From assembly GCA_023898345.1 (NCBI GenBank), contig CP060218.1, positions 1,087,926 through 1,151,925 on the forward strand: DNA of 64,000 nt, in the 5' to 3' direction. Positions within the stretch are counted from its first letter, which is position 1. Each line of letters opens with the position of its first letter. Position numbers and translations under genes: made by a program. This document shows positions 157 to 56,022 of the stretch, piece after piece. A model generated the notes under the pieces. It was not told where the DNA came from. It was given only the letters and a program-made list of their open reading frames with translations, and did no database searches. This stretch comes from Candidatus Woesearchaeota archaeon (GTDB taxonomy: Archaea > Nanobdellota > Nanobdellia > Woesearchaeales > UBA583).

Positions 157-270
157 TAGCTAATTCATAAAAACTATCTTGAAATTTCAAATTAACTTGG
201 GTTACCATAGGGTAGAGAATACTTGAGGATATTTAAAAATATCTTTTGGTTAAACCATAGTTAAAAAAAA

Positions 271-591
271 TTATGATGATGTCACAGGTGTTGCACAGCA
301 AACTTGCCCATCTGGAACACTTGCCGTTGAAATTCTCTTTTCTCCTTCTGAACAACCCGTGGTCTTAGCTGTTATTCTGGCGCTCGTGTACTGATCTTCT
401 GGAAGAACAAAGGTTCCAATTTTACATCCTCGAAAATCGTCGTTGGTGTTTGTAATGGTAGTTCCGGCGTCTGCTGTTCTTGTCGTGAAAAAAACCACAA
501 TAACTACAAGCACAATGATTACTAAAAGTGCTATAACGATAGTGTTCAAAGGGAGACTCTGAGCCTTATTCTGTTTTTGATTCATAACCAT
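271..591 (-). CDS. Small secreted or membrane-anchored Cys-containing protein with an N-terminal hydrophobic, class III-like signal (paralog A)
   Basis: Basic N-terminus MVMNQKQNKAQS followed by an ~22-residue hydrophobic stretch, and 4 Cys in the mature part. The N-terminal 30 aa and the promoter are duplicated at 666..1026. Confidence 0.5.
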   Translation of the reverse strand: MVMNQKQNKAQSLPLNTIVIALLVIIVLVVIVVFFTTRTADAGTTITNTNDDFRGCKIGTFVLPEDQYTSARITAKTTGCSEGEKRISTASVPDGQVCCATPVTSS

Positions 592-665
592 GAGATTTTT
601 GAGAAAAAAGTATTTTATAAAAATTTGTCATCACAGATAGGAGAAACTTCTTCTAGGAGTTGGAC

Positions 666-977
666 TTACTTAATTGCACAACATAGCTTTTTGTTGTCCT
701 TTCCTTCAACACTTAAGAAGATATCACCATTGACAGCATCGCACTCTTCCTTTGTGTCAACACCTATAGTTCTGGCATACTCCTCAGAAATTGCTGTCGA
801 TCCAGGTTCACATGAAAGACTCCCTTCCCGAACATTGTTAAAATCCCCTCCCGATTTATTCATCTTACTTACAAAAAAAGTAATAATCAGAACTAAGGCA
901 ATTATCACAAGAAGAGCTATAACGATAGTGTTCAAAGGGAGACCCTGAGCCTTATTCTGTTTTTGATTCATAACCAT
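666..977 (-). CDS. Small secreted or membrane-anchored Cys-containing protein (paralog B of 271..591)
   Basis: N-terminus nearly identical to paralog A (MVMNQKQNKAQGLPLNTIVIALLVII) with a diverged C-terminal domain. It shares a 110-bp identical upstream and N-terminal block. Confidence 0.5.
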   Translation of the reverse strand: MVMNQKQNKAQGLPLNTIVIALLVIIALVLIITFFVSKMNKSGGDFNNVREGSLSCEPGSTAISEEYARTIGVDTKEECDAVNGDIFLSVEGKDNKKLCCAIK

Positions 978-1026
978 GAGATTTTTGAGAAAAAAGTATT
1001 TTATAAAAATTTGTCATCACAGATAG
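916..1026. repeat. Tandem duplicate (1 mismatch in ~110 bp) of 530..640; spans the TATA-like promoter, start codon and signal peptide of the paralogous secreted proteins
   Basis: Direct comparison of 530..640 with 916..1026. On the minus strand the block reads ...tttttataaaatactttttt ... ATGgttatgaatcaaaaacagaataaggctcag. Confidence 0.85.
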
Positions 1027-1044
1027 GAGAAACTTTTGTTCTAC

Positions 1045-2775
1045 CTATTCTTCAGAATCTAAGTCGCGCTGCCCAAAGGGCTTGAACTCGCGACCGCCGC
1101 CAGAGTAAAACTTTGTGAAAAATTCTACATAATGCAGACGTAGTGTGTGAAGGAAGGACTCAAAATTTCCAAGAACAATGTTGAACACGTGTCCGACAAC
1201 AAAGAGAAGAACTCCTCCTAAAGCGGGTAGGAGTCCTGCTTCAAATAAGGGGATGGAAAACTCGTTCACCATGATTGCAATAACAATTGAGGAAAAGCCA
1301 ACTGCCATGAGACGTGCGTAGGAGAGAATGTTTGAAAAAATGGAAGGAAGTTCTATGAGGCCGACAAAGCCGTGTCCAATAAAGATGAGAACAACTGCTA
1401 AAAGAACTGTCGCTAGTCCTGCGTAGAAAAGTCCTGAACTTTCCCCTATAGAACCAAGGATTGCTAATGCTACTCCGAGTTGTAATATAATCCACGATAA
1501 TTTGTCGCAAATTGCGTGTTTTAGATGATGGCGTGTGTTGTAAAAACCTATGAGTAATCCCATGTTGATGTGCACAACTCCAAATCCAACTGCTATGAGT
1601 AAGAGTGCCATAACATTTTCTGTTCTTGAAAAAATATGGTAGGGTTCAAAACCAAAGTATTCTCCGTATATGATTCCAAAAAGAATGGAACTTAGTGCGG
1701 AGAGTTGTAAAATGCTGAGGAAGTCTTTGAGATTCTTGTATTTGAGTTTTGCTAGAGAAAAGGCAAAAAGGGAAACTAGTCCGTAACCTACATCTCCGAG
1801 AACAAATCCGAAGAAGAGTGGAAAAATCAAAAACATAATGAAGGAAGGATCGAATTCTCCATACTTTGGCAGGGAGTACATTTTGAGAAGAGTCTCAAAT
1901 TTGTCGGCACCTGTGATATTTTGAAGAAGTGATGGTGCATCCTTTGCCGGCTCTGCTTCCATTTCAAAGCTATCTGCAAGTTCTCGTTCTAAGTTTGAAC
2001 GTAGTTTTTTTACGAGAGCATTTGGGATGTACCCATTGAGAACGGTGATGTTTTTGCTTGCGATCAAATGATTTTTAGCTTCTTCTGAACTTACTTGCTT
2101 ACTTAACTTTAGTTCTTTTCTTTGTAGGTGGCGAAGATTTTCATTTGCTAATTCCTTCAGTTCCGCAAAGAGTGTTTTTTTGAGAGCTCTCTCTTTTGCC
2201 AATTTTTGTTCGAGATGAGCATCAACTTTTTGTGGAAGATAAAATGGCGTGAAGTGAAGTGGGATATCTTTTGAATAAGCTATGAAATACAGTCTTTCGT
2301 CAAAGGTTGTACTTCTGTACCTGATCCCTGCTTTGTCGAGCACTTTTAGATCTAGAGGAGATTTGCTGTGAAGAAAACCTATACTGATTTTTGGATCTTT
2401 CAAGTCTTTTTCTTTTATGTTGAGTCCTTTTATGACTGCTTTTCTTCGCTTTGCATCTTCAATGAAGAGAAGTTCTTTTGATATCTTTGAGTACTGACTT
2501 TCTAGCTCAAATGTTTTCTTCATGACTTGTTCTTCTTCTTCTTTTCCTGAAACTTCTTTTGTGAAAAATGGCTTGAGAAGGGTAATTGTTGAACGCAGTT
2601 TGAGAAGATCCCCTGAATCTTTTTCGTGCTCCTCAGCTCCGACTTGCTCAAATTTGGCGTTCTTGACACTAAAGAATTCCATGAGTTTTAGGTCGTAGAG
2701 CATACTCAAAACTTTGTTCATATCGTTTTTGAGGACAAAAATTCTCACTTTAGACATGCTAACTGGCTTAAACAC
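1045..2775 (-). CDS. atpI: A/V-type ATP synthase subunit I (membrane a-subunit)
   Basis: 576 aa. N-terminal MSKVRIFVLKNDMNKVLSMLYDLKLMEFF, multiple C-terminal TM helices, and a terminal ...TLRLHYVEFFTKFYSGGG motif typical of subunit I/a. It overlaps the upstream H subunit gene by 8 nt. Confidence 0.9.
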   Translation of the reverse strand: MFKPVSMSKVRIFVLKNDMNKVLSMLYDLKLMEFFSVKNAKFEQVGAEEHEKDSGDLLKLRSTITLLKPFFTKEVSGKEEEEQVMKKTFELESQYSKISKELLFIEDAKRRKAVIKGLNIKEKDLKDPKISIGFLHSKSPLDLKVLDKAGIRYRSTTFDERLYFIAYSKDIPLHFTPFYLPQKVDAHLEQKLAKERALKKTLFAELKELANENLRHLQRKELKLSKQVSSEEAKNHLIASKNITVLNGYIPNALVKKLRSNLERELADSFEMEAEPAKDAPSLLQNITGADKFETLLKMYSLPKYGEFDPSFIMFLIFPLFFGFVLGDVGYGLVSLFAFSLAKLKYKNLKDFLSILQLSALSSILFGIIYGEYFGFEPYHIFSRTENVMALLLIAVGFGVVHINMGLLIGFYNTRHHLKHAICDKLSWIILQLGVALAILGSIGESSGLFYAGLATVLLAVVLIFIGHGFVGLIELPSIFSNILSYARLMAVGFSSIVIAIMVNEFSIPLFEAGLLPALGGVLLFVVGHVFNIVLGNFESFLHTLRLHYVEFFTKFYSGGGREFKPFGQRDLDSEE

Positions 2776-3070
2776 GTTCTATTTCCTCCATCACAAAGTC
2801 TAGTGCTTTTTCTGTCGGCGCTGAGGTTGCAAGTTTTTTGACTTCTTCTTCTGCTGCTTCTTGTATGTCTTTTGCTTTTTTCTTAGCCTCGTCTTTTTTC
2901 TTCTGAGCTTCTGCCTCAACTTTTTCTGAAATCATTTTTTGAGCTGCTTTTTCCTGCTCTTCAATATCTTTTTGCGCTTTTTCTATTCTCGTTTGCGCCT
3001 TGCTTTGCGCTTTAGAAATAATCGTCTGTGCTTCTTCTTCGAGTCTGATAACTTTTTCAAGAGAACTCAT
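2768..3070 (-). CDS. atpH: A/V-type ATP synthase subunit H (small coiled-coil stalk subunit)
   Basis: 100 aa with a highly charged E/K/A/Q-rich coiled coil, lying immediately upstream of and overlapping atpI as in archaeal ahaH-ahaI operons. Confidence 0.7.
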   Translation of the reverse strand: MSSLEKVIRLEEEAQTIISKAQSKAQTRIEKAQKDIEEQEKAAQKMISEKVEAEAQKKKDEAKKKAKDIQEAAEEEVKKLATSAPTEKALDFVMEEIERV

Positions 3071-22397: not shown

Positions 22398-25136
22398 CTA
22401 CTCATAACTAATGCCTTCTTCAAAAAGCTGGAAAACTTCGTCGCCGTTCAAGCTTGTATTCCACACACTGATTTCATCGAGAAGGCAATTCACTTCGTAG
22501 CTGGCTGTGGGGTGGCGGCCAAAGTAAAGCGAAGCTTCGGGGAGTGTATTTTCAGCGCCACTTTTGCTCCCGATAAAAGTGCCGTTAAGGTAGTATTGCA
22601 AACCGGAACTTGTGCTGACGAAGGTGACATGGTGCCAGGTGTTCAATGAGAGTTGGCCAAAGGCATCGTATTCGTATGTCCCGTTTCCAAGCAGCGCATC
22701 TATTGTTCTGTCGCCGGGCCAGTTCAAAACTGTTCCTTGGCCGAGGTATCCGACGTCGGAGTTTGTCACTAAGTATTTGTTGCCGCTGCCGCTGCGAAAG
22801 TTCACCCAAAAGGAAAGTGTTTTGATTGTTCCATTGATGGGAAGATCTAGATAGCTTGTGCCTGATGTTCCGGGGAGGTCAAAGGAGGAGCCGTCAATGC
22901 CCCAACTGTTATAGGTCACGGAGCTGCCTTTGCTGCCGTCATGGTGATAGGAGGAATTGTCGAGTACGGAATTTTCGCCTTTCCAATGACCGAGTAAACT
23001 TGCATTTGCTGGAAGGCCGGAGTTACTTGGTGGTGAGGTTGGTGTGTCAAAGTTTTCCATGCTTGCTGCATAGAGTTGGTAGATGCTGCTTTGGTTAAGG
23101 GAAACACCCCACACACTGATTTCATCGAGAAGGCAATTCACTTCGTAGCTGGGTGTTGGGTGTCTTCCAAGGTAAAGGGAGGCTTCGCTAAGGGAATTGA
23201 TGGCTCCGACTGTTAGGCCTTTGTACGCGCCGTTGAGATAGTACTCTTGGCCTGAGCCTGTGCTGACGAAGGTGACGTAGTACCAGGTGTTCAAAGAGAG
23301 GGTTCCGAAATCATTGAAGGCATATACTCCGTTTCCGAGAAGGGAGTCTATTGTTCTGTCGCCGGGCCAGTTCACAACGGTTCCTTGGCCGAGGTATCCG
23401 ACGTCGGAGTTTGTTACGAGGTATTTGTTGCCGGTGCCGCTGCGAAAGTTCACCCAAAAGGAAAGTGTTTTGATTGTTCCATTGATGGGAAGATCTAGAT
23501 AACTTGTACCTGATGTTCCGGGGAGGTCAAAGGCTGTTCCGAAGGGGCCGGAGGTGGTGTACGTCACGGCTGATCCGAGTGTGGCGCTTTTGTTGTTTGC
23601 TGAACTGTCGAGGGAAGTATTTTCGCCTTTCCAGTATCCGATTAAACCGTAGCTGTTGTTAAAGGGGGAAACTGGGGCAAGTTCTTCTTCGCTTACAAGG
23701 CTGTACTTTTGCGGACAGTCCAAAGCGTTACAGTCGCTTGCACTCACAACAACGAGCCACTGCCCGGACTCGATTTCGCTTGTATTCACGTACACTTGCT
23801 CGACGTTGTTGAGGTGATCGCTTTCGTTACGCCAAGCTTCTCGTGCGGGTGTGTTCGGGTCGAGTGTCCAGGGATAGAATGTTTGTCCGGATGGCGATAG
23901 GAGTTTGAGGTCAAGGTCGTTGATGAGGTTGGCTCCGGGAACGTCGTCCCAAGCTAGCGTTACTTTGAGTGAGCTTTGTGCGCTGATGTTGATTGCGTAC
24001 ACGTCCACGTCAGAGATGTCTGAAATGTTTGCTTCTAGGAATGTTCCGTTGATGATTCGGTCCACAGCTCCTTTGGCGTTGAGTAGTCCGTACCCGTTCA
24101 CGTAGTCGGGGCCGTCGATGATTTCACTCCCGTTGCCGCTACGGTGTAGGTCTGTCGTCGAATCTAGCAAAAGGGCTTTGATTGTCGATGGGAGCGGGTC
24201 TTCGTCGTAGCCGGACTTGTTCCACCGTTCGAGCATAAGCGCGATGGTTCCACTGACGTGTGGCGCTGACATGGAGGTTCCGCTAACAGTTGCATAATTA
24301 TTTGTTCCATTTGTAGTTGTGATTCCATTTCCAGGTGCAACTAAATCAGGTTTTATTCTTCCACCATTTGTTGGACCAAGTCCCGATGTAAAGCTAATAA
24401 CACCACTGTCGTAAACATTACCTACGGAAATGGTGTTTTTTGCAACTGCTTCTGGAGCAATAGTAAAATACCCCGTTGTTAGATTACAGTTTTGAGAATT
24501 ACCAACAGCCCAAACTATTGGAACTTTTCTAGTTGTATAATTTCCATAAACCAATTCATCTATTAATTGAGTAAAAGAATTATATTCTCCCAATACTTCA
24601 CATTGCTTATGTCCATAGGAATTTGAAATTACATTAATACTGTAATTATCAATTCCAGTTTTATAGTTAGATTCTAAGTCATAACTATATCCAAAAGGTA
24701 ATAAATCTTCTTGGTACCCATAAATTTTTGCTTCAGGAGCTACCCCAACATAACTTGAATTTAGATTTCCGTCCCCTATCATTATACCTGCAACCCTAGT
24801 TGCATGGTCTGATGTAGAAGGAGCCAAATTTAAGATTTGTAGTCTAGTTGCAAAATCTGTATGGTTACTCGCAACTTCTCTTTCATATTGTAAAATATTT
24901 ATATTGCTCCCCTGTAAATCATAAGGGTTTTCATAAAGAATAGGAATTTTACTAACATTTTTAGAACTATCTAAAAAATTTTTGCTATTCTGTAATTCAA
25001 CATCAATAAATAATATTTCGTCTGTATTGGATAAGATGAATAATGTTTCTTCATATGTGAGAGAATTTGAAAATGCATTAACTGAAAGTAATAATATCAT
25101 CAGTAATAAAAATTGACTATTTTTAAAATAACTCAT
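22398..25136 (-). CDS. Secreted S8 subtilisin-like serine protease with two C-terminal LamG/concanavalin-like lectin domains
   Basis: Signal peptide, catalytic His (HATRVAGIM) and Ser (GTSMSAPHVSGTIALM) motifs, then two ~190-aa tandem repeats (YLDLPINGTIKTLSFWVNFRSG...CLLDEISVW). The start overlaps the upstream gene by 4 nt. Confidence 0.9.
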   Translation of the reverse strand: MSYFKNSQFLLLMILLLSVNAFSNSLTYEETLFILSNTDEILFIDVELQNSKNFLDSSKNVSKIPILYENPYDLQGSNINILQYEREVASNHTDFATRLQILNLAPSTSDHATRVAGIMIGDGNLNSSYVGVAPEAKIYGYQEDLLPFGYSYDLESNYKTGIDNYSINVISNSYGHKQCEVLGEYNSFTQLIDELVYGNYTTRKVPIVWAVGNSQNCNLTTGYFTIAPEAVAKNTISVGNVYDSGVISFTSGLGPTNGGRIKPDLVAPGNGITTTNGTNNYATVSGTSMSAPHVSGTIALMLERWNKSGYDEDPLPSTIKALLLDSTTDLHRSGNGSEIIDGPDYVNGYGLLNAKGAVDRIINGTFLEANISDISDVDVYAINISAQSSLKVTLAWDDVPGANLINDLDLKLLSPSGQTFYPWTLDPNTPAREAWRNESDHLNNVEQVYVNTSEIESGQWLVVVSASDCNALDCPQKYSLVSEEELAPVSPFNNSYGLIGYWKGENTSLDSSANNKSATLGSAVTYTTSGPFGTAFDLPGTSGTSYLDLPINGTIKTLSFWVNFRSGTGNKYLVTNSDVGYLGQGTVVNWPGDRTIDSLLGNGVYAFNDFGTLSLNTWYYVTFVSTGSGQEYYLNGAYKGLTVGAINSLSEASLYLGRHPTPSYEVNCLLDEISVWGVSLNQSSIYQLYAASMENFDTPTSPPSNSGLPANASLLGHWKGENSVLDNSSYHHDGSKGSSVTYNSWGIDGSSFDLPGTSGTSYLDLPINGTIKTLSFWVNFRSGSGNKYLVTNSDVGYLGQGTVLNWPGDRTIDALLGNGTYEYDAFGQLSLNTWHHVTFVSTSSGLQYYLNGTFIGSKSGAENTLPEASLYFGRHPTASYEVNCLLDEISVWNTSLNGDEVFQLFEEGISYE

Positions 25137-25423
25137 TTTTCATAGCACCTCTCTAGTACACATTGGTGATCTTCATTACAGGAAGTTCCGCAATAATCAT
25201 TAAGGCAAACACTTCCAAAGTTAGTACTACCTTTTTTCTCATGATATAAATTTACACCTTGACAATCTATATAATCAAAGCGACATTCACTATCTTGTTC
25301 ACAATACTGCTTATCCAGCATGTACTTTGGATGTGTTATCCAAGCAGGATTGAGTATTAAGTAGATGGCAATTAAGACAAGAAATATACTTCCCAGAATA
25401 ATTGCTAATTTTTTCTTATTCAT
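25133..25423 (-). CDS. Small Cys-rich membrane-anchored/secreted protein (family member Cys0), translationally coupled to the subtilase
   Basis: 96 aa with N-terminal TM LAIILGSIFLVLIAIYLIL and 10 Cys (YCEQDSECRFDYIDCQG...CLNDYCGTSCNEDHQCVLERC). ATGA stop/start overlap with the subtilase. Confidence 0.65.
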   Translation of the reverse strand: MNKKKLAIILGSIFLVLIAIYLILNPAWITHPKYMLDKQYCEQDSECRFDYIDCQGVNLYHEKKGSTNFGSVCLNDYCGTSCNEDHQCVLERCYEK

Positions 25424-26172
25424 TCTTCATCACCAACATAAACACGTACTGTCAAAGCATGAAGAGTTTGAAGCTGACTTACAACATTCAAACCTTTTTT
25501 CTCAAGTACTATTTGAGCATCATCAAGAGATACATCTTTGTGAATATGAACAGTCAGATACGCATAAGCTTCTTCATCAAGATAATCACTACTTAAGGTA
25601 TTTGCTTGGAGAACAGGGCCAAACTTTTGCTCAAGGCTAAAATCTAAAACTGAACGAATTTTTGTACTCCCTAAAAAAGAGTTTAGTTGCGGATTATAAT
25701 TGAGATTTGAAAAATTTGTTTGGTCTGATTCAAGTACGTACTGAGTCGAACTAGGACTTACGGCTACAAGGTAAGCATTTGCTCCTTGATATTCGAGAAC
25801 ATTTATTCCTTTCTCAAAGAGAACAGATATGTCCTCTTTTGATAAGGGTGTAAAAAATTGAAAGACTAAATAAGACTGAGAATTTGCATTCCTTAGTTTT
25901 TCTCTTAAATCATCATCAATGCCTTCAGTAGGAACGGTTTTGCTTGTTTTTAGAATATACTTTTCTAAAGCTTGCTTTTTGTCATATACTTTTATATTAC
26001 TTAAAGACGAGTTGCTTTCATTCAACTCCTTTACCTCCAAAGATGAATTTTCAGAACTGAGATTTTGAGCGTAAACTAATCCTACAAAGACTAACAAGAA
26101 CAAAAGAATTGTACCTGCGAACAGTTTTCGTATCATAGTTTTATAGACTTTTTTTTTGAAATATTTTTTCAT
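25420..26172 (-). CDS. Secreted hypothetical protein (N-terminal TM/signal); shares the conserved upstream leader block with the Cys-rich genes
   Basis: Start chosen at the internal ATG (MKKYFKKK...MIRKLFAGTILLFLLVFVGLVYA). The ORF-track N-terminal extension (FKTNHIKK) is translated promoter sequence shared with 26645..27082 and 27485..27871. Confidence 0.5.
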   Translation of the reverse strand: MKKYFKKKVYKTMIRKLFAGTILLFLLVFVGLVYAQNLSSENSSLEVKELNESNSSLSNIKVYDKKQALEKYILKTSKTVPTEGIDDDLREKLRNANSQSYLVFQFFTPLSKEDISVLFEKGINVLEYQGANAYLVAVSPSSTQYVLESDQTNFSNLNYNPQLNSFLGSTKIRSVLDFSLEQKFGPVLQANTLSSDYLDEEAYAYLTVHIHKDVSLDDAQIVLEKKGLNVVSQLQTLHALTVRVYVGDEE

Positions 26173-26289
26173 GCTTTTTACTCTCCAAATTCTTTTCTTT
26201 ATATGATTTGTCTTGAAAACTGAGGTTATGCTAAAAAGAATTACAAACAAAAATATTATTGCTTTCATTTTGCACGCACACATGAATTA

Positions 26290-26564
26290 TTTATTGAACA
26301 CTTATTATTGACACAATTTGAAATTCCACAAGTAACTATTTTGCAAATTCCTGTTTCTTCATAATTTGTTTGGTAAACATTGATTGGTTCACAAGTAGCA
26401 AATTGGAAACAATCACTATCTTGCTCACAATACTACTGTTTATCCATCATATCTTTCGGATGAGTTATCCAAGCAGGATGTACAATTACATATATTACCA
26501 ATGTCATAAGCAAAATACTTCCAACTATGAAGCCGATTTTTTTTGAATTTATCTTAACCATTTT
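26290..26564 (-). pseudogene. Paralog of the Cys-rich protein family interrupted by an in-frame TAG (3-nt insertion)
   Basis: Manual translation gives MVKINSKKIGFIVGSILLMTLVIYVIVHPAWITHPKDMMDKQ*YCEQDSDCFQFATCEP...CVNNKCSINNSCVRAK. Versus 25133..25423 the only disruption is an inserted tag codon (cagTAGtattgt vs cagtattgt). Confidence 0.55.
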
Positions 26565-26644
26565 TTTGAATATTTTTTTTGAAATTCTTTTCTTTATATG
26601 AAAACAAAGAAAGAGAGAAAAAGTAAGGTTTTTTTCTATTCATT

Positions 26645-26959
26645 TTAACTTTCCCCTCCTGCCTGTAAGAGGACAGCACATTTATTGTCAGACCCACAGG
26701 AAATTACTATCCCCGAATTGCTACACTCCGTAGTATTCCAGTTATTAGAAAAATATTTATTGCCTAAAGAACAATTTGTAGAGATACAATCATCCCCTTT
26801 TTCGCAGTACAAAGGGTCGTTCAAATACCTCACATCAATGCCCATGTAATACGCTTTGATATTATTCTGATACATAAAACCAAGGGCAATAAGGCACAGC
26901 ACAATAACTATGCTCCCAACAAAAATCTTTTGTTTCTCACCTATGTTTATCTTAACCAT
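26645..26959 (-). CDS. Small Cys-rich membrane-anchored/secreted protein (Cys1)
   Basis: Start at internal ATG (MVKINIGEKQKIFVGSIVIVLCLIALGF...). Shares the DVRYLNDPLYCE..DC motif with the paralogs. 9 Cys. Confidence 0.6.
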   Translation of the reverse strand: MVKINIGEKQKIFVGSIVIVLCLIALGFMYQNNIKAYYMGIDVRYLNDPLYCEKGDDCISTNCSLGNKYFSNNWNTTECSNSGIVISCGSDNKCAVLLQAGGES

Positions 26960-27074
26960 TTTTTTGAATATTCTTTTTGAATTTTTTTTCTTTATATGAT
27001 TTGTCTTGAAAATTTTCACCTTTTTTTGTTTTTTCAAAGCGTAGTTTTTTCTGTATGAAATATCTCTACAATTC

Positions 27075-27262
27075 GCTCCCATTCACGTACACTTGCTCGA
27101 CGTTGTTGAGGTGATCGCTTTCGTTACGCCAAGCTTCTCGTGCGGGTGTGTTCGGGTCGAGTGTCCAGGGATAGAATGTTTGTCCGGAGGGTGAGAGGAG
27201 TTTGAGATCTAAGTCGTTGATGAGGTTGGCTCCGGGAACGTCGTCCCAAGCTAGCGTTACTA
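27075..27262 (-). pseudogene. ~190-bp internal fragment of the subtilase gene (copy of ~23774..23960, about 93-95% identity)
   Basis: Encodes LAWDDVPGANLINDLDLKLLSPSGQTFYPWTLDPNTPAREAWRNESDHLNNVEQVYVN, identical to subtilase residues ~390-450. No start and no catalytic residues. Confidence 0.8.
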
Positions 27263-27484
27263 ATTCCTTTTTTTGACTAAAAATTAGAATCTCCAATAAT
27301 TACCTCTGTATCTTGTTTAGATGAGTAAGGAGTAAGCTGAATTTTTTGTAAGTTTGTGGCATTTGTTTCATTTCTCGAAAAAAGGTTAAGAGATTCATTT
27401 TGTTCGAGATATTATCTGAAGCTAAAATAGGCCCAATAATTAAGTGAAAAAACATTGTTATGAAGTAAAATAGGAAAGAGGTTT

Positions 27485-27811
27485 TCATTTTTGATATTTT
27501 TCCTCCCAACAAACTGGACTATTATTTGCTACACATTTATTGTTAGAACAAGATTTATCACAAACCTCAAGTTGACATTGTGAATCACCTTGCGTATTGA
27601 AACGATTGATAACAGTGCAGCGTTCTATAACACAATCTTCTTTGCTTTCGCAATAATAGGGGTCCAGTAAATATCTTACATCTACACCTTTATACTCTGC
27701 TTCGATATGATGTCTGAAACTAAATATGCCAACTAGCAGTAATAAAAATAAACTTACTAGACAAAATATTACTTTTTTCTCCTTCAATTTTTTTGAATTT
27801 ATCTTAACCAT
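27485..27811 (-). CDS. Small Cys-rich membrane-anchored/secreted protein (Cys2)
   Basis: Start at internal ATG (MVKINSKKLKEKKVIFCLVSLFLLLLVGIF...). Contains the DVRYLLDPYYCESKEDC motif and 11 Cys. A TATA-like tcatataaag lies ~30 nt upstream, conserved across the family. Confidence 0.6.
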   Translation of the reverse strand: MVKINSKKLKEKKVIFCLVSLFLLLLVGIFSFRHHIEAEYKGVDVRYLLDPYYCESKEDCVIERCTVINRFNTQGDSQCQLEVCDKSCSNNKCVANNSPVCWEEKYQK

Positions 27812-27924
27812 TTTTTTGAATATTTTTTTTGAAATTTCTTTCTTTATATGATTTGTCTTGAAAATTTGCAAAACATTTTTTTTTTCAAAGCGTAGTTTTT
27901 TCTGTATGAAATATCTCTACAAAT

Positions 27925-28125
27925 TGCTCCCATTCACGTACACTTGCTCGACGTTGTTGAGGTGATCGCTTTCGTTACGCCAAGCTTCTCGTGCGGGTGT
28001 GTTCGGGTCGAGTGTCCAGGGATAAAATGTTTGTCCTGTGGGCGAGAGAAGTTTGAGGTCAAGGTCGTTGATGAGGTTGGCTCCGGGAACGTCATCCCAA
28101 GCTAGTGTTACTTTGAGCGAGCTTT
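27925..28125 (-). pseudogene. Second ~200-bp internal fragment of the subtilase gene (copy of ~23774..23985)
   Basis: Same boundaries at the 5' side as fragment 27075..27262 (both begin ...ctcccattcacgtacacttgctcgacg). Lies upstream of Cys2. Confidence 0.8.
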
Positions 28126-28479: not shown

Positions 28480-28551
28480 GCACCTGTAGCTCAGTGGTAG
28501 AGCGCTTGCCTCGTAAGCAAGAGGTCGGGGGTTCAAATCCCCCCAGGCGCT
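28480..28551 (+). tRNA. tRNA-Thr (anticodon CGU)
   Basis: Manual cloverleaf: acceptor GCACCTG/CAGGCGC (one A:C mismatch at 3:70), D-arm GCTCAGTGGTAGAGC, anticodon stem CTTGC/GCAAG with loop CT-CGT-AA, T-arm GGGGGTTCAAATCCCCC, discriminator T, no encoded CCA. Followed by a T-rich tract. Confidence 0.85.
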
Positions 28552-28558
28552 TGTGTTT

Positions 28559-30874
28559 TTACAGTGTTCCTGAATCTCGCTTTTGTATTTTTTCTTCTTC
28601 GATTCTTGCAAGTTCTTTCTTAATGTATCGTTTGTACCAGTCTTCAAACTCGCTAAAGATTTGTCGTGGGTCGAGATGTCCTAGTTCGTCATTTACTTTC
28701 TCTGCTATTTTGTGAAACATATCGTTTGCATCAAGAACACATTGTGCTTCGAGAAGTGAGGGAAGAAGGAATTTGGCGGCGCAGTCTACTTGTAATTGCT
28801 TTATTCTTGAACGAAGTCGAATGTTCTCCCAAATGGCATCCCAGTTTCCCGCAAATTGTTTGACGTTTGCTCCTATTGCTTTGAGGATGTCGGATTCTCC
28901 ATTAATGAGTTCGTCAGAAATTTCTAGTTTGTCGGTCTTTGAATTATACTTGAAAAGATCGGAGAACCCTCCTTCTAATAATGGGTCGTTATCCCACTTT
29001 TTTCTTACTTCTGTTATTTGGGTAATTCTTCTTACTCTGTGAAGTCCATCGGCACTTTTTACGGGGTTTGCAACTACGATGATGTCTGTTGCTTTGAAGG
29101 AGGTGTTTGGAACTTTAAGATCATTCACGAGTCTGTCGTACACACCAAAGGGACTGTCTCCGTGGATGGTTCCTGCTACGACGTTTGCTAAAGCTCCGAC
29201 ACGCATGGCTTCGTACAGTGCCAGTGCTTCTGTCGAACGAACTTCTCCTACGATAAGACAGGAATCTCCTAAACGAAGTGTACTACGAATTCCCATGTCA
29301 GCGCTCATTCCTTCTTTGGACACGGAAAGTGCGCTTCGTACGCTTAGTGCTTGAAGATTGTAACCTAATTTTGAAAATTCAATTGAGGGTAATTCTAAGG
29401 TGTCTTCAACGGTTATGATTCTGTACTTTCTCATTATCTCCAATATGATTGCTGTTAAAAATGAGGATTTTCCTGAACCTCTTGTTCCTGCTATTAAAAT
29501 GGTTCTTGCTCCATCTACAATAAAACTCAAGAGTCCTGCTGCCTCTGCACTGATCATTCCATTTTTTATGAAAAGCGGCAAAGTCCAGGGTTTGTTTCTG
29601 TGGCGTCTGAAGGAATAACCGATTCCGTAGGGATTGAGTGGTTTTCCAACAGCTGAAACACGCGCTCTGGCAGTTGGCGTCTGAATTTCTGTATCGAGAA
29701 GAGGATTTGACGCGTCAAGTGGTTTTCCGGACATCATTCTCAAACGTGATGCCCAGCCGTCTACTTCATCTTGCTCTGGAATAATATTTGTTCGACAATC
29801 TTCGTAGTCAGAATGTGTCAGAAAAATGGGAGTTTTGTTTGCTGGCGAATTGACGCTAATGTCCTGCACTTTCTCATCATCTAGCAAAACTTCAATTGGC
29901 CCAAAACCGACAGTGTAACGAATGAGTATGTCGGCTAGTTCTTCGAGCTCTCTTTGGCGTAGTCGTACTCCTTTGAAATCTGCGATTTCTTCAATGAGAT
30001 CTCTTGAGATATTGTGAAAAATTTCTCGCAGTCTTTCTGGATCAATAAAATCATTTGATTCTGGTTGGTGTTCTGCAATGACTTCTTTTGCTAAGTTTAA
30101 AATTCCGTACTTTTCGTCACTTAGCATAAACTCTGTTGGCGTCAAATGATAGAGGTTGTTCGCTTCTTTGTCGAGCTCGAAGATGGTTACTTTGCCGTGG
30201 GGGAGTGTGTAGGAGTCTAATTCTTTTGCTTCGATGGGGTAACGTTTGAGCAGGGAGGTGTAAATAAAATTTGGCTTGATGTTGGCTGAAAAAAAATCTT
30301 TGTAAATATAGCGCGATCCAATTTTGTGTCCGGACAAATGTGCTTTTGTTTTTCGTACGATTGTTAGGGTTTCAACTCTCATGAGCAAATAGCCAAGTGC
30401 AGCTTCGTACTTGTTGTCTACTTCTGCACAACGTTGTTCTGAATTTTCTTTCTCGAACTTGTAGTCTCGCAAACGGCGTTTCAAAGAAACATAGGTTCCG
30501 ATGGGATCAGAGGGGAAATCTTTGAGGATGAGATTTTGTAGTTCGGCGTACCTGTTGAAAAAAAGTTTAATACAAAAATCGTCTTTGGAACTTATTTCAC
30601 TTGGAGAGAATAAATCTTTTTGTTTTGTAAGATGAAGAAAGAGACGAGAAACTTCTTTGAGGAGTTCAACTTGCTCATTGTTGTACTCGTAGTTCTTGTT
30701 GTGGATGAGAATTATCTTTGTCGTGGATGGCATGGCGATTAACTTTGTAATGATGTCTCGCATAACAAAGCCGTTGTCCTCAATCGAAGGAAAATTTTCT
30801 TTTCCTAGGTAATTTATCTTTAAAATGGACTCTACACCGTGTTTTACGAGCTCAAAGTCCTTTCTTTCAAACAT
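28559..30874 (-). CDS. Type IV pilus/archaellum-family secretion ATPase (FlaI/PilB/VirB11-like) with long N- and C-terminal extensions; orphan (no adjacent platform gene)
   Basis: Walker A IAGTRGSGKSSFLT. Paralogous to 57875..59599 (shared ...RLGDSC.I.GE.R..EA..LYEAMRVGA..NVV.GTIH.D...GVYDR.VNDL). 771 aa versus about 550 typical. Confidence 0.85.
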   Translation of the reverse strand: MFERKDFELVKHGVESILKINYLGKENFPSIEDNGFVMRDIITKLIAMPSTTKIILIHNKNYEYNNEQVELLKEVSRLFLHLTKQKDLFSPSEISSKDDFCIKLFFNRYAELQNLILKDFPSDPIGTYVSLKRRLRDYKFEKENSEQRCAEVDNKYEAALGYLLMRVETLTIVRKTKAHLSGHKIGSRYIYKDFFSANIKPNFIYTSLLKRYPIEAKELDSYTLPHGKVTIFELDKEANNLYHLTPTEFMLSDEKYGILNLAKEVIAEHQPESNDFIDPERLREIFHNISRDLIEEIADFKGVRLRQRELEELADILIRYTVGFGPIEVLLDDEKVQDISVNSPANKTPIFLTHSDYEDCRTNIIPEQDEVDGWASRLRMMSGKPLDASNPLLDTEIQTPTARARVSAVGKPLNPYGIGYSFRRHRNKPWTLPLFIKNGMISAEAAGLLSFIVDGARTILIAGTRGSGKSSFLTAIILEIMRKYRIITVEDTLELPSIEFSKLGYNLQALSVRSALSVSKEGMSADMGIRSTLRLGDSCLIVGEVRSTEALALYEAMRVGALANVVAGTIHGDSPFGVYDRLVNDLKVPNTSFKATDIIVVANPVKSADGLHRVRRITQITEVRKKWDNDPLLEGGFSDLFKYNSKTDKLEISDELINGESDILKAIGANVKQFAGNWDAIWENIRLRSRIKQLQVDCAAKFLLPSLLEAQCVLDANDMFHKIAEKVNDELGHLDPRQIFSEFEDWYKRYIKKELARIEEEKIQKRDSGTL

Positions 30875-36488: not shown

Positions 36489-37778
36489 TCAACTCCAAGA
36501 TGCTAAAGGCGCATAATCATACGTTGTTCCTGTTACAAGAAAGGAACTGGGATTAGTACAGACAACATATGACCCACGAGTTTCGTTTGTAAGACAGGGC
36601 CCAAAACTTTCATAATAATTTCCAATATTATAAGCTCCAACTGAATAATTATAAGAAAAACTACCTGCGTAATTAGTAGTAGAACTATCAAAATAATTAT
36701 TATAAAATGAATTATTGTTGCCATTGCCAGAAGCATGATATTTCCCTGAAGGGGTGTTTGTTATAATACTGTTTCTTACCTGATTATTGTCCGTGCCTGA
36801 AAAAATATCTATTGTTCCATCATTGAAGACATTTGAATTATTATCAAACACAACAGTATCAATAAGATTATTATCTGACCCTGAGAAAATAGTTATACCA
36901 TTATCATGATTATGGGATAATTGTGAATTTCTTAAAATATTATAATTAGAATTTATCTCAAAGGAAATTCCATCATCATATCCAGAACCTAAGGCATTAT
37001 TTGTATTATAGTTTGAAATTATGCCATCAAATAGGTTATAATTGCTATTGACTAACCTAATTCCACCACCATTATTAGAAGTACTAGTGTTTAGGACAGA
37101 ACAATTATCTGCAGCATTCATGTAAATTCCATCATCAAAACCACTGATGTCACAATTTTGTATTGTAATTCCATCAAAGCTGTTTATGTAGAATCCAAAT
37201 CCACTTGTATCCCCATCTCCAGTTATAGAGTAGCCCATACAATCAAAGGTTAGATTCCCTGTTGAGAAAGTAAAGCAATTGCCATCTTGATTTGAAATAG
37301 AATTCATCAGGTAAACTTTAGAGTAATTTTCTAGTGTTGATGCACTAATATCTCCACAAGCACTTACACTTACATAATCTATTATAATTCTTTCCAGAAA
37401 AAAACTCTTCTCAACAATGGAGTTCTCTGTCACTAACACGACTGAGTGAGTAGAACTATCCAAACTTTCTAAACAAGTAGCTACATCAATTTCAGTTATC
37501 CCCGTATTTACTGTCGTATTTAACCCGCAATCAACTCCTCCAATTTCTATTCTATAAATTGTCAGATTATCTTCAATACTTTTTACATATAGACTCTCCC
37601 CAAATAAATTTTCAATAAAAAGACTTCCACTTGCTGACCCTGCAGTTCTCTCAATACTACTAGTACTACTTGAAAAATATTGGTTAAACCATCCCTGAAA
37701 GCTAAGAATTCCCAATGTAGTTACCAGAATTACCAATATTGTGGCTATGATTGGACTTATTGCCTTTTTCTGGGACAT
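36489..37778 (-). CDS. Pilin-like surface protein: archaeal class III signal peptide plus parallel beta-helix domain
   Basis: N-terminus MSQKKAISPIIATILVILVTTLGILSF (archaeal type IV pilin / flagellin N-terminal motif), followed by N/G/S-rich beta-helix-like repeats (NNLIDTVVFDNNSNVFNDGTIDIFSGTDNNQVRNSII). Confidence 0.7.
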   Translation of the reverse strand: MSQKKAISPIIATILVILVTTLGILSFQGWFNQYFSSSTSSIERTAGSASGSLFIENLFGESLYVKSIEDNLTIYRIEIGGVDCGLNTTVNTGITEIDVATCLESLDSSTHSVVLVTENSIVEKSFFLERIIIDYVSVSACGDISASTLENYSKVYLMNSISNQDGNCFTFSTGNLTFDCMGYSITGDGDTSGFGFYINSFDGITIQNCDISGFDDGIYMNAADNCSVLNTSTSNNGGGIRLVNSNYNLFDGIISNYNTNNALGSGYDDGISFEINSNYNILRNSQLSHNHDNGITIFSGSDNNLIDTVVFDNNSNVFNDGTIDIFSGTDNNQVRNSIITNTPSGKYHASGNGNNNSFYNNYFDSSTTNYAGSFSYNYSVGAYNIGNYYESFGPCLTNETRGSYVVCTNPSSFLVTGTTYDYAPLASWS

Positions 37779-43140: not shown

Positions 43141-44589
43141 TTACCTTTGTGCGTACTTGAGGACAAGATAAGGATAAATCCCTCCAACGTCCATGTACCC
43201 TGCGACATAGATATTGCCTGAGCTGTCAAGTTCTATTCCTGTCATCCATTCATCATTTCCACTATCATAGGTTACATTCCAAATTTCATTTCCATTTGTA
43301 TCATATTTCACAAGTAGAGTGATAGCAGTAGTTGAGGCCCCAACGACATATACATTCCCCAAATTATCAATTACAATCTCATTTCCCCATTCACCATTTC
43401 CTGAGTCATAAGTTACATTCCAAATTTCATTTCCGCTAGAGTCATATTTGAATGTTATGAAGTCATCATTTGCTCCATTATTTGTCCCTCCCGTTATATA
43501 CACATTTCCTAAGCTATCAACAGTAACTCTGTTTCCCCATTCACTATTTCCTGAGTCATAAGTTACATTCCAAATCTCGTTTCCGCTAGAGTCATATTTG
43601 AATGTTATGGCGTCATAATTTGCTCCATTATTTGTCCCCCCCGTTATATACACATTTCCTAAGCTATCAACAGTAACTCCATTCCCATACTCATCACTTC
43701 CACCGTCATACGTCACATTCCAAATCTCGTTTCCGCTAGAGTCATATTTGAATGTTATGAAGTCATCATTTGCTCCATTACTTGAATATCCACTTACGTA
43801 GATATCTCCCTTTGGACTAAGTGCAATTGAGGAGGTATCATCATAATTTCCTCCATCATACGTCACATTCCAAATCTCGTTTCCGCTAGAGTCATATTTG
43901 AATGTTATGAAGTCATCATTTGCTCCATTATTTGAATATCCACTTACGTAGATATCTCCCTTTGGACTAAGTGCAATTGAGGAGATATCATCATAATTTC
44001 CTCCATCATACGTCACATTCCAGAGTTGCTCCATGTTGTTATCATATTTAGCTACGAGAAAATCAGAGTCTCCATTATCAATCCCTCCCGCTAAGTATAT
44101 ATTTCCTTCTGAATCAAGTGCTAGATCATAAAACCAAACATTATTGCTCAGATCTGGCGATTTGTTCCACAACAGTACGGGCATAAGTTCGTGGCTTTGG
44201 TATTGTTCTTTTACAAAGAACTTCTTGCTATAAATTCCTTTATCTGTAAATACTGCTACTTCAACAGAGTTGCCACTTGCATTAAGACAAGAACCCAAAT
44301 CAAATATGTGTAACCCTGAAAAAATACCTGTTGAAAACTCGCAGTCAGTTCCTGAGGCTTTCACATTAGAGACTGCTGTTCCTGTTCCTGCTTGAAAAAA
44401 GAGCTCGTCGCCAACGAGATCGACAATCCCCACACTTTGGCCGCTTGCTGTGTCGGACTCGGCTTTTGCGAAAAGAGCAGATCGAAAGGAATCAAACCAG
44501 CTACTGAAAAAAATGACTGCGACAACAGCAACGACAAGAAGTAGGGCAACGGCAATGACGGGAGAAATAGCTTTTTTTGGCGAGCGCAT
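43141..44589 (-). CDS. Pilin-like adhesin: class III signal peptide plus about 8 SBBP beta-propeller repeats
   Basis: MRSPKKAISPVIAVALLLVVAVVAVIFF, then ~41-aa repeats (YDSSGNEIWNVTYDGGN.DD.SSIALSPKGDIYVSGYS.NGANDDFITFK). Four units are near-identical at the nucleotide level. Confidence 0.75.
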   Translation of the reverse strand: MRSPKKAISPVIAVALLLVVAVVAVIFFSSWFDSFRSALFAKAESDTASGQSVGIVDLVGDELFFQAGTGTAVSNVKASGTDCEFSTGIFSGLHIFDLGSCLNASGNSVEVAVFTDKGIYSKKFFVKEQYQSHELMPVLLWNKSPDLSNNVWFYDLALDSEGNIYLAGGIDNGDSDFLVAKYDNNMEQLWNVTYDGGNYDDISSIALSPKGDIYVSGYSNNGANDDFITFKYDSSGNEIWNVTYDGGNYDDTSSIALSPKGDIYVSGYSSNGANDDFITFKYDSSGNEIWNVTYDGGSDEYGNGVTVDSLGNVYITGGTNNGANYDAITFKYDSSGNEIWNVTYDSGNSEWGNRVTVDSLGNVYITGGTNNGANDDFITFKYDSSGNEIWNVTYDSGNGEWGNEIVIDNLGNVYVVGASTTAITLLVKYDTNGNEIWNVTYDSGNDEWMTGIELDSSGNIYVAGYMDVGGIYPYLVLKYAQR

Positions 44590-44745
44590 GTTTGGAATGA
44601 AGAGAAACACTATTTATACTTTTGTTTGGAGCTTGAAGAAGTGAAGCTCTTTTTTTCTTGAAACGAACGGTTCTGTCCATAATTTTATTTTGAAACATTT
44701 TAAGATAACTATTTTTAGTCAAAAATAAATCTCTTGTTAGCAAAA

Positions 44746-51454: not shown

Positions 51455-51547
51455 GGGTTTTTTATTAAAAAGCACTATATAAATTCTTTTCACTCGAAAA
51501 TTGACCAATTTGGTGAAACCTAGCACTCGATTGCACAAAACAAAGAG

Positions 51548-55659: not shown

Positions 55660-56019
55660 TTATTTTGTTAAAGTGAAATTTTGTACCTCGCAGGTATTTT
55701 GTATGGTGCAACATTCTAAGTCGACTCTGTACTCGCCTGATCCTTGTTCGGCTGCTGCAAGGCGAAAGCTTGTTCTGACGTCACTCCTATCTTTAAAGAA
55801 GGGCTCTTCAGCTCCATCGTAAAAGAACTCTGCTTCACAGCGTTTCCTTACGTCAAAAATTCCTGAAATTACGACATGTGTCCCATTCTCAATATAGGAA
55901 AACTTTGAGTTGTCTAGTTCTTCGTCAAAAAAGCTAACACTACTTACAATCTGGAAAATAACTGCTCCTCCTGCAAGGGCAATAATGACAAGTACAATTA
56001 TTTCTGCTAGTAATCTCAT
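55660..56019 (-). CDS. Small membrane-anchored protein downstream of the FlaJ-like gene (possible minor pilin or pilus accessory protein)
   Basis: 119 aa with N-terminal TM IIVLVIIALAGGAVIFQIV and 4 Cys. 3-nt gap from the FlaJ-like gene. Confidence 0.45.
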   Translation of the reverse strand: MRLLAEIIVLVIIALAGGAVIFQIVSSVSFFDEELDNSKFSYIENGTHVVISGIFDVRKRCEAEFFYDGAEEPFFKDRSDVRTSFRLAAAEQGSGEYRVDLECCTIQNTCEVQNFTLTK

Positions 56020-56022
56020 TTT

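Follow-up and report, generated by a model that had tools for sequence, protein, structure and literature searches.

How have two neighbouring archaeal genes kept promoters and first codons that are identical at all but one nucleotide, when the proteins they encode have diverged so widely downstream? The question is raised by a pair of small genes close to the start of a 64,000-nucleotide stretch of DNA from a Candidatus Woesearchaeota archaeon (GenBank assembly GCA_023898345.1, contig CP060218.1, positions 1,087,926 to 1,151,925), which is referred to below as the window and whose numbering is used unless another sequence is named. An earlier reading of this DNA, made from its letters alone and called here the original prediction, had proposed a duplicated promoter and signal-peptide module fused to two diverged secreted domains. 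Our analysis indicates that the two genes are likely to be tandem type IV pilin-like paralogs of a Woesearchaeota (DPANN) archaeon, which would have arisen by an old duplication and whose promoter and N-terminal module would since have been homogenized by gene conversion.

Two tandem genes share a 120-nucleotide tract

The two genes (copy A and copy B), the tract that they have in common and the associated signals are located as follows.

271..591, minus strand: copy A gene, 106 amino acids; identical to NCBI H6501_03965, a "hypothetical protein" of Candidatus Woesearchaeota archaeon
666..977, minus strand: copy B gene, 103 amino acids; identical to H6501_03970; tandem paralog of copy A
530..649, minus strand: near-identical tract of copy A, putative gene-conversion tract
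916..1035, minus strand: near-identical tract of copy B, beginning 10 nucleotides past the atpI stop codon
613..623, minus strand: TATA box of copy A, TTTTTATAAAA, at -32..-22 from the ATG and preceded by an A-rich GACAAA resembling a B recognition element (BRE)
999..1009, minus strand: TATA box of copy B, identical to that of copy A
263..270, minus strand: run of eight T residues directly after the copy A stop codon

Base-by-base comparison of 530..649 with 916..1035 yields 119 matches over 120 nucleotides, and the lone mismatch (558/944) falls on the first base of codon 12, giving Ser versus Gly in the two paralogs. The tract spans -58 to +62 relative to the ATG and therefore takes in the A-rich BRE-like element, the TATA box, the start codon and codons 1-20, which correspond to a 10-residue leader and the first 10 residues of the predicted mature protein. 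Its edges are sharp on both sides, with upstream identity stopping abruptly at -59. A repeat finder reports the region as a 162-nucleotide direct repeat pair with 90% identity and a spacing of 386 nucleotides, while a 33-nucleotide probe taken from the tract matches the two copies only within the 64 kb, where shuffled sequences lead one to expect 0 matches. Given the 43% nucleotide identity over the following 51 codons, the probability of 119 matches in 120 is about 1e-42. The tract pair is real and statistically unambiguous, and a chance origin is ruled out.

These comparisons bear out much of what the original prediction had described. The two near-identical 5′ blocks, which differ at one base, are present, though slightly longer (120 nucleotides) than the 110 bp it had given, and the TATA-like box, the ATG and the N-terminal sequence MVMNQKQNKAQ[S/G]LPLNTIVIAL lie within them as stated. 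Its view of the block as a promoter, start codon and N-terminal targeting segment serving two small exported Cys-containing paralogs is likewise supported. The block is not, however, an isolated duplicated unit; it is the best-conserved portion of a whole-gene tandem duplication with a 386-bp period on the minus strand. On that strand the A-type ATP synthase genes atpH (2768..3070) and atpI (1045..2775) come first, and copies B and A follow directly, in that order. The arrangement is not an assembly artefact, since the sequence of the B-A junction is identical in the NCBI assembly GCA_020637525.1 (L012) and in a separate European Nucleotide Archive (ENA) metagenome assembly (L013).

In both copies the TATA-like motif starts 30 nucleotides before the ATG. 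An archaeal TATA box lies about 26 nucleotides upstream of the transcription start, so a TATA position near -30 suggests that the transcripts are leaderless or nearly so. This spacing recurs in the window: when 54 of its genes were scanned, a TATA-like motif was found to start at -29..-31 from the start codon in 11 (both copies and nine others), with two further genes carrying one at -34 and -36, and an ortholog in another genome (L021) has its TATA box at about -30. The run of eight T residues after copy A is likely to be an oligo-T terminator for the gene pair, oligo-T termination being general in archaeal transcription.

An old duplication and a probable recent homogenization of the 5′ end

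If the two genes had separated recently, synonymous sites should be alike along their whole length, and this is not what is observed. The proportion of synonymous sites that differ between copies A and B (pS) is 0.075 in codons 1-22, but 0.82 in codons 23-36, where 8 of the 14 residues are nevertheless still identical, and 0.74 in codons 37-73. Synonymous sites that are near-identical within the tract and saturated outside it argue for an old duplication overlaid by a recent gene-conversion tract, rather than for a recent duplication. Where the identity lies can be read directly from the alignment, and gene conversion is what we infer as its cause. The ongoing conversion of the 5′ end that the original prediction had put forward fits this pattern, with pS near zero in the tract and saturation just outside it, and fits the strain comparison given below. 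The other course that it had offered, recent duplication followed by fast divergence, does not, as synonymous sites in codons 23-36 are already saturated even though the protein there is conserved.

The same values bear on the proposal that the whole gene was duplicated very recently and that strong positive selection then rewrote all but the 5′ end, leaving its identity as a remnant. The genes are indeed adjacent and in the same orientation, the exposed domains of surface proteins can evolve fast, and the proportion of nonsynonymous sites that differ between the two C-terminal heads (pN) is high (0.57). Positive selection, however, does not saturate synonymous sites (pS 0.82 and 0.74 versus 0.075), and the identity breaks off as sharply at its upstream edge as at its downstream one, making this proposal highly improbable. 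Because synonymous divergence (dS) is saturated, its ratio to nonsynonymous divergence (dN/dS) is not meaningful for the heads, and these sequences neither show nor exclude diversifying selection on them.

A comparison between strains points in the same direction as the comparison between copies. At -50..-47 both copies of the window read TATC. The copy A ortholog of another strain has CTTA there; it lies on an ENA metagenome contig (L014) that matches the window at 99.4% identity starting from about position 657. Paralogs within a genome that are closer to each other than to their orthologs in another strain are a classic sign of concerted evolution, which is suggested here by three sites only.

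The same contig differs from the window in a further respect. Upstream of about window position 657 its sequence (L014 1..274) is wholly different, and in place of copy B there is an AT-rich spacer together with the 3′ terminal part of an unrelated gene, the break falling within 8 nucleotides of the upstream edge of the repeat. The strain may be without copy B, the region may have been rearranged, or the contig may hold a third copy of the module, located elsewhere.

Could the 120 nucleotides instead have been held identical by selection on the nucleotides themselves, for instance because they serve as an operator, an extended promoter or a 5′ mRNA element for leaderless translation, with no recombination involved? 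The tract does take in the whole promoter and the translation start, and orthologs retain the TATA box at about -30. Against this, the nine codons of the core peptide LPLNTIVIA vary freely at third positions among more than 10 genomes, which places the constraint at the level of the protein instead of the DNA or RNA, and orthologs from other genomes encode this peptide with codons that differ along its whole length. Moreover, the other strain differs inside the tract at -50..-47, and the remaining promoters of the window have only the TATA box in common with it. Leaders and upstream regions also differ within two further tandem pairs of the family (L011 and L008). We regard selection on nucleotides as a very unlikely explanation for the tract.

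These two pairs are informative about the family as a whole. L011, an unrelated metagenome contig, carries an independent tandem pair with a low-pS tract of its own (0.19 over 36 codons, -2 to +33, versus 0.63 downstream), which is placed differently in the gene from the tract of the window. The third tandem pair (L008) is without a recent homogenization tract. As judged from these sequences, tandem duplication recurs in the family, and short conversion tracts over its conserved 5′ part occur repeatedly; the frequency of tandem duplication rests on few cases, family-pattern scans of genome and metagenome collections having confirmed 4 and 6 loci.

Remnants of mobile elements may be associated with loci of this family. 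An integrase-core fragment (rve_3, a weak match) lies near the pair at L012 12430..12624, about 2 kb beyond window position 1, and what appears by eye to be the C-terminal part of a transposase (L008 146..553) is located upstream of the L008 tandem pair.

A family with a prepilin-like N-terminal module

Scans with Pfam and NCBIfam identified no model for either protein, giving only chance matches to transmembrane segments, and a literature search found no paper on the core motif LPLNTIV. The proteins nonetheless belong to a sizeable family. A word-indexed search recovered about 30 relatives of 100-124 amino acids, and an exhaustive profile search recovered 1,760 cluster representatives (clustered at 50% identity) at E <= 1e-3, of which 147 reach E <= 1e-10; almost all have a length of 80-135 amino acids. 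The family profile matches copy A at E = 7.7e-28 (residues 1-101) and copy B at E = 1.2e-23 (residues 1-103). The parts of the N-terminal module are as follows.

562..591, minus strand: copy A leader, MVMNQKQNKA (residues 1-10), with a predicted class III signal peptidase cut at A10/Q11
948..977, minus strand: copy B leader, the same as in copy A, assigned from the paralog alignment and the family motif
484..561, minus strand: copy A hydrophobic N-terminal helix (residues 11-36), QSLPLNTIVIALLVIIVLVVIVVFFT, a near-invariant segment of the family
870..947, minus strand: copy B hydrophobic N-terminal helix (residues 11-36), assigned from the alignment and an AlphaFold2 (AF2) model

Statistics for this module were derived from 134 diverse representatives of the family. 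Relative to the predicted cut, position -2 is K or R in 95%, -1 is G, A or S in 100% and +1 is Q in 99%, and the leader varies between 4 and 26 residues. The +1 Gln is followed by G, S or A and then by LPLNTIVIA, each position of which is 86-100% conserved (it is invariant in one alignment, A2), and by about 12 more hydrophobic residues, so that the hydrophobic stretch after the leader comprises about 24 residues. An archaeal class III signal peptide is described as having G, A or S at -1, a charged residue at -2 and a cut site ahead of a hydrophobic domain, while Gln at +1 is a hallmark of substrates of EppA, the second archaeal prepilin peptidase, for which the Epd sites are KGQ and RAQ (PMC4371748). 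Both copies of the window display these features: their site reads K9-A10/Q11, residues 13-36 are uncharged and hydrophobic (at least about 20 residues being called for), and +1 is Gln.

By these rules the family is predicted to consist of type IV pilin-like proteins with a class III (prepilin-type) signal peptide. The suggestion in the original prediction that the pair might be pilin-like is consistent with the motif across the family and with the gene neighbourhoods described below. The same holds for its proposal of processing by a prepilin peptidase, but the site needs correction, the likely cut being A10/Q11 instead of a position after KAQ.

One possible relative falls outside this motif. 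Directly after the family gene in L007 lies an open reading frame for 93 amino acids (1362..1643) whose hydrophobic N-terminus is devoid of the K-A-Q-S-LPLNT motif and whose C-terminus ends in "..ACC.." as in the family; this could be a paralog that has degenerated or diverged.

The variable heads are homologous

Downstream of the helix, each protein continues into a head domain.

274..483, minus strand: copy A variable head (residues 37-106), with Cys56, Cys80, Cys98 and Cys99 and strands at 68-75, 85-87 and 96-102
669..869, minus strand: copy B variable head (residues 37-103), with Cys56, Cys79, Cys99 and Cys100

The whole proteins align over their full length with 41% identity (BLASTP, E = 3e-24), but beyond residue 36 identity falls to 11 of 66 aligned residues. 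The four cysteines (56, 79/80 and a CC pair near the end) nevertheless occupy conserved columns of the family alignment; 89 of the 134 representatives have four cysteines and 31 have six, and the CC pair is present in 120. AF2 models of both copies show a helix over residues 15-53 (39 residues) followed by three strands, with a mean predicted local distance difference test score (pLDDT) of 80.7 for copy A, rising to 97 at residues 21-30, and of 77.3 for copy B. Taken together, the alignment and models indicate that the homology of the two heads is weak but clear and that their predicted topology is the same. The four cysteines are predicted to form, probably, two disulfides.

This result changes the picture of the locus. 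The original prediction had seen little in common between the mature domains and had read them as different cargo in a cassette-like architecture, but a scheme of one module with different cargo fails because the heads are homologous, their four cysteines align and their predicted topology is the same. Nor did the silent cassettes of the mature domain that it had envisaged come to light: a tblastn search of the 64 kb with both heads and the N-terminal segment returned only the two genes themselves. It had also named homologous mature domains with uniform divergence along the gene as an outcome that would speak against it; the domains do prove to be homologous, yet the divergence is distributed very unevenly along the gene.

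Candidate filament machinery and gene neighbourhoods

If the pair encodes pilin-like proteins, an assembly apparatus would be expected in the genome, and candidates for parts of one are present in the window.

57875..59599, minus strand: type IV filament assembly ATPase (T2SSE/FlaI-like); PF00437, E = 8e-20; NCBIfam FlaI, E = 2.8e-34, below the model cut-off
56023..57891, minus strand: polytopic platform protein (FlaJ/TadC/T2SSF-like) of 622 amino acids, its gene overlapping that of the ATPase; weak PF00482 match, E = 7e-4, below cut-off
28559..30874, minus strand: second T2SSE-family ATPase, 771 amino acids; PF00437, E = 1e-16

The ATPase encoded at 57875..59599 is a candidate motor for assembling the pilin-like pair. 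Related genomes connect the family with machinery of this type. An operon in L009 encodes an ATPase that is 44% identical to that of 57875..59599 and a platform protein homologous to that of 56023..57891 (E = 2e-24), and several pilin-like genes follow these two, among them one for a 58-residue protein with the same N-terminus, RKGQELPLNTIVIA. In L021 the family gene lies 64 nucleotides downstream of a Peptidase_A24 gene on the same strand, and in L020 a 468-amino-acid Peptidase_A24 protein is encoded 5 kb from the family gene. L010 contains an array of small genes whose products have [KR]AQGLP[ML]..I N-termini and various C-termini; five of them fit the motif scan, and several further class III-like N-termini are visible in the list of its open reading frames. 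Epd-type "system 1" filament loci have been reported in DPANN archaea (bioRxiv 10.64898/2026.04.22.720090).

The most regular neighbour is fen1, which adjoins the family gene in seven genomes (the window genome, L002, L004, L018, L019, L020 and L021). Since fen1 is the constant neighbour, unrelated genes intervene in some genomes and the family genes have their own promoters, we take this to reflect conserved gene order and not a functional link. The same evidence bears on an idea prompted by the adjacency of atpI, namely that the small proteins serve the A-type ATP synthase as accessory subunits in the membrane. The family gene follows atpH-atpI in the window, L018 and L020 and atpA-atpB-atpD in L002, on the same strand in each case. 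Each gene has its own promoter, however; a malic enzyme gene intervenes in L020 and genes for two cytoplasmic proteins in L018, and the neighbourhoods in L001, L011 and L021 contain no ATPase genes. A Cys-rich extracellular head would also be unexpected in an ATPase subunit. We therefore rejected this idea, on the grounds of the separate promoters, the intervening genes and the ATPase-free neighbourhoods, and give it next to no credence.

A number of points weigh against reading the pair as pilin-like proteins whose 5′ ends were homogenized by conversion. A Pfam scan of 118 family members gave no pilin model, with PF04021, PF07790 and PF01917 not among the matches; PF04021 (Class_IIIsignal, QxSxExxxL) in particular matched neither the two proteins at E <= 10 nor the 118 members at E <= 0.01, and PF07790 (Pilin_N) had no match for the family. 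The acidic residue (Glu) at +5 is missing, this position being Leu (Q-S/G-L-P-L). Foldseek searches of the PDB with both AF2 models gave nothing significant (the best hits, at E of about 1-3, were antibody fragments and apple domains and were regarded as noise), and neither did a profile search of PDB sequences. The family gene is mostly solitary, outside filament operons and beside fen1. No Peptidase_A24 gene was found in the window by the regular expression GxGD[VILAM][KR], which is a weak test, and none was seen in the 10 kb lying outside the start of the window (L012). Finally, the strain comparison inside the tract comprises just the three sites mentioned, and the conversion event, as well as cleavage and filament formation, is deduced and not directly observed.

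Three of these points, the lack of a matching pilin family model or solved pilin structure, the location beside fen1 and outside filament operons, and the failure of the motif search to find an A24 peptidase gene in the window, favour an alternative in which both products are unprocessed signal-anchored (type II) membrane proteins. They would carry a small extracellular disulfide-bonded domain, be unrelated to filaments, and have a helix conserved for binding another membrane complex. We consider this alternative unlikely. An anchor alone gives no reason for K/R at -2, G/A/S at -1 and Q at +1 to be conserved ahead of the hydrophobic segment when the leader ranges from 4 to 26 residues; furthermore, one family gene directly follows an A24 peptidase gene (L021), and a short protein with the same N-terminal module is encoded within an operon of ATPase, platform and pilin genes (L009).

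Several other features of these neighbourhoods were noted. The ATPase gene and the overlapping platform gene are accompanied, within 55660..59599, by a gene for a 119-amino-acid protein with an N-terminal hydrophobic segment and five cysteines. The second ATPase gene (28559..30874) has no platform gene after it and adjoins tRNA-Thr (28480..28551). A link between the filament genes of the window and those of L018 was considered and set aside with no inference drawn, the L018 ATPase being only about 31% identical and its 516-amino-acid neighbour having no homolog in the window. That neighbour (L018 2468..4018), whose gene comes directly after the filament ATPase and platform genes, is 33% identical (E = 4e-66) to a 494-amino-acid protein (L001 3216..4700) whose gene is directly upstream of the family gene in L001. 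These conserved proteins of unknown function could be an accessory component of the filament system. The atpH and atpI genes stand alone at 1045..3070; an Lrp/AsnC regulator gene precedes them, the K, E, C, F, A, B and D genes are all missing from the vicinity, and the ATPase operon has apparently been split differently in related genomes (L002, L018, L020) while the fen1 neighbourhood was kept.

A model for the gene pair and its implications

The observations above lend themselves to a simple model. Each gene would be transcribed from a separate BRE/TATA promoter about 30 nucleotides upstream of its ATG, yielding a leaderless or near-leaderless mRNA, as the position of the motif and the same pattern at other genes of the window suggest. 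The precursor, with its basic 10-residue leader ending in K-A, would insert into the membrane via the hydrophobic segment, and a class III (Peptidase_A24) signal peptidase would cut between Ala10 and Gln11, as indicated by the motif and by the gene neighbourhoods of relatives. The mature protein of about 95 residues is predicted to comprise a long N-terminal helix, QxLPLNTIVIA..., and a three-stranded, four-Cys head of about 50 residues. By analogy, the ATPase and platform encoded in the window could polymerize the mature protein or hold it at the membrane, with the helices buried and the disulfide-stabilized heads exposed.

Under this model the helix would have to suit the peptidase, the platform and neighbouring subunits and would thus remain near-invariant, while the exposed head could evolve freely. 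We propose that this constraint accounts for the conservation of the helix across the family, and that gene conversion accounts for the additional nucleotide identity in this genome. A recent conversion would have copied about 120 nucleotides from one paralog to the other, leaving the two with the same expression signals and processing site and with different heads.

The significance of the pair lies partly in the lifestyle of the organisms that carry such genes. An attached life on other cells is assumed for DPANN archaea, and very little is known of the genes behind their attachment structures. We can imagine, as a possibility that we rate as doubtful, that the family is the main filament subunit of Woesearchaeota-type DPANN, serving attachment to host cells or surfaces, and that its paralogs with recurrent conversion form a minimal device for surface diversification. 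If this were true, two head shapes would be co-expressed and co-assembled on one invariant helical core, and binding specificity could be broadened or switched in an organism reliant on physical contacts with other cells.

Irrespective of this wider reading, the analysis gives a name to small "hypothetical" proteins that form a widespread family without a Pfam or NCBIfam model, and would be the first description of that family as DPANN pilin-like. It also provides what appears to be a clean and small case of concerted evolution limited to a promoter and N-terminal module, with a second genome showing the same pattern. The model makes a testable prediction, namely that an A24 peptidase cuts before Gln11 and that assembly by the T2SSE ATPase and platform follows.

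Other surface-protein loci in the window

A second locus of similar pattern is found at 22398..28112 (minus strand). It contains three open reading frames for small secreted Cys-rich proteins (25420..26283, 26645..27082 and 27485..27871) with a common N-terminal block, FKTNHIKK..IFKKMVKIN, and repeated upstream segments. Repeats at this locus have spacings of 395-398 and 852 nucleotides and include a 54-nucleotide family with four copies (26166, 26561, 26959 and 27811). A 237-nucleotide fragment of an S8 peptidase gene (23728..23964) has two extra copies at 27025..27261 and 27876..28112, and the S8 peptidase gene also has an internal duplication of 648 nucleotides. Segmental duplication of surface-protein genes seems to be common in this genome.

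Two large proteins encoded on the minus strand at 36489..37778 and 43141..44610 possess the usual class III-type N-terminus KKAISP[IV]IA (KKAISPIIATILVI and KKAISPVIAVALLL, respectively), fused in the former to a NosD/beta-helix domain and in the latter to SBBP beta-propeller repeats; the protein of 43141..44610 also has a faint Pilin_N match. They are likely to be pilin-like adhesins or surface enzymes. In addition, a very large open reading frame of 1,785 amino acids occupies 46181..51538 (minus strand).

Comparison with known pilin systems

The predicted overall plan of the two proteins resembles that of bacterial type IVa pilins, which have an N-terminal helix and a small beta-sheet head with a C-terminal disulfide-bonded region, and which are processed at a G/F...E5 site and N-methylated. 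The likeness lies in the helix and in a small beta-sheet head with cysteines near the C-terminus; on the other hand, the pair comes from another domain of life and has another processing motif, and no sequence or Foldseek similarity was detected. Recombination among pilin genes is familiar from Neisseria pilE/pilS, where silent cassettes devoid of promoters donate variable C-terminal segments to a single expressed gene. The two systems would have in common that conversion takes place among pilin paralogs whose N-terminal part is conserved and whose exposed C-terminal part varies. In the window, however, the part that appears to have been converted is the conserved 5′ end together with the promoter. 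Both genes look fit for expression, and the search of the 64 kb found no silent cassettes.

The two closest functional parallels are archaeal. The Epd pilins of Methanococcus maripaludis (EpdA-E), which have the same type of processing site, are small type IV pilins with a short basic leader that is cut before a +1 Gln ahead of a hydrophobic helix (PMC4371748). The present family differs from them in having Leu instead of an acidic residue at +5, no PF04021 match, an invariant LPLNTIVIA core and a four-Cys head ending in CC, and its genes are mostly isolated beside fen1 rather than placed in an epd-like cluster. The design of the pair is also that of PilA1-PilA6 of Haloferax volcanii, paralogs with an almost fully conserved hydrophobic N-terminal domain and differing C-termini whose genes are unlinked to the assembly genes; there the conserved domain is needed for assembly and different paralogs confer different adhesion properties (PMC4371748). 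Those proteins are of the Pilin_N type, with R/D-A-V-S sites cut by PibD, in contrast to the present family, which has no PF07790 match, and the same source makes no mention of the arrangement of the pilA genes or of nucleotide-level homogenization of their promoters and 5′ coding regions. As a conserved helix, a variable head and paralogs that share the helix are already known from bacterial and haloarchaeal pilins, our finding adds to what is known of this design rather than changing it.

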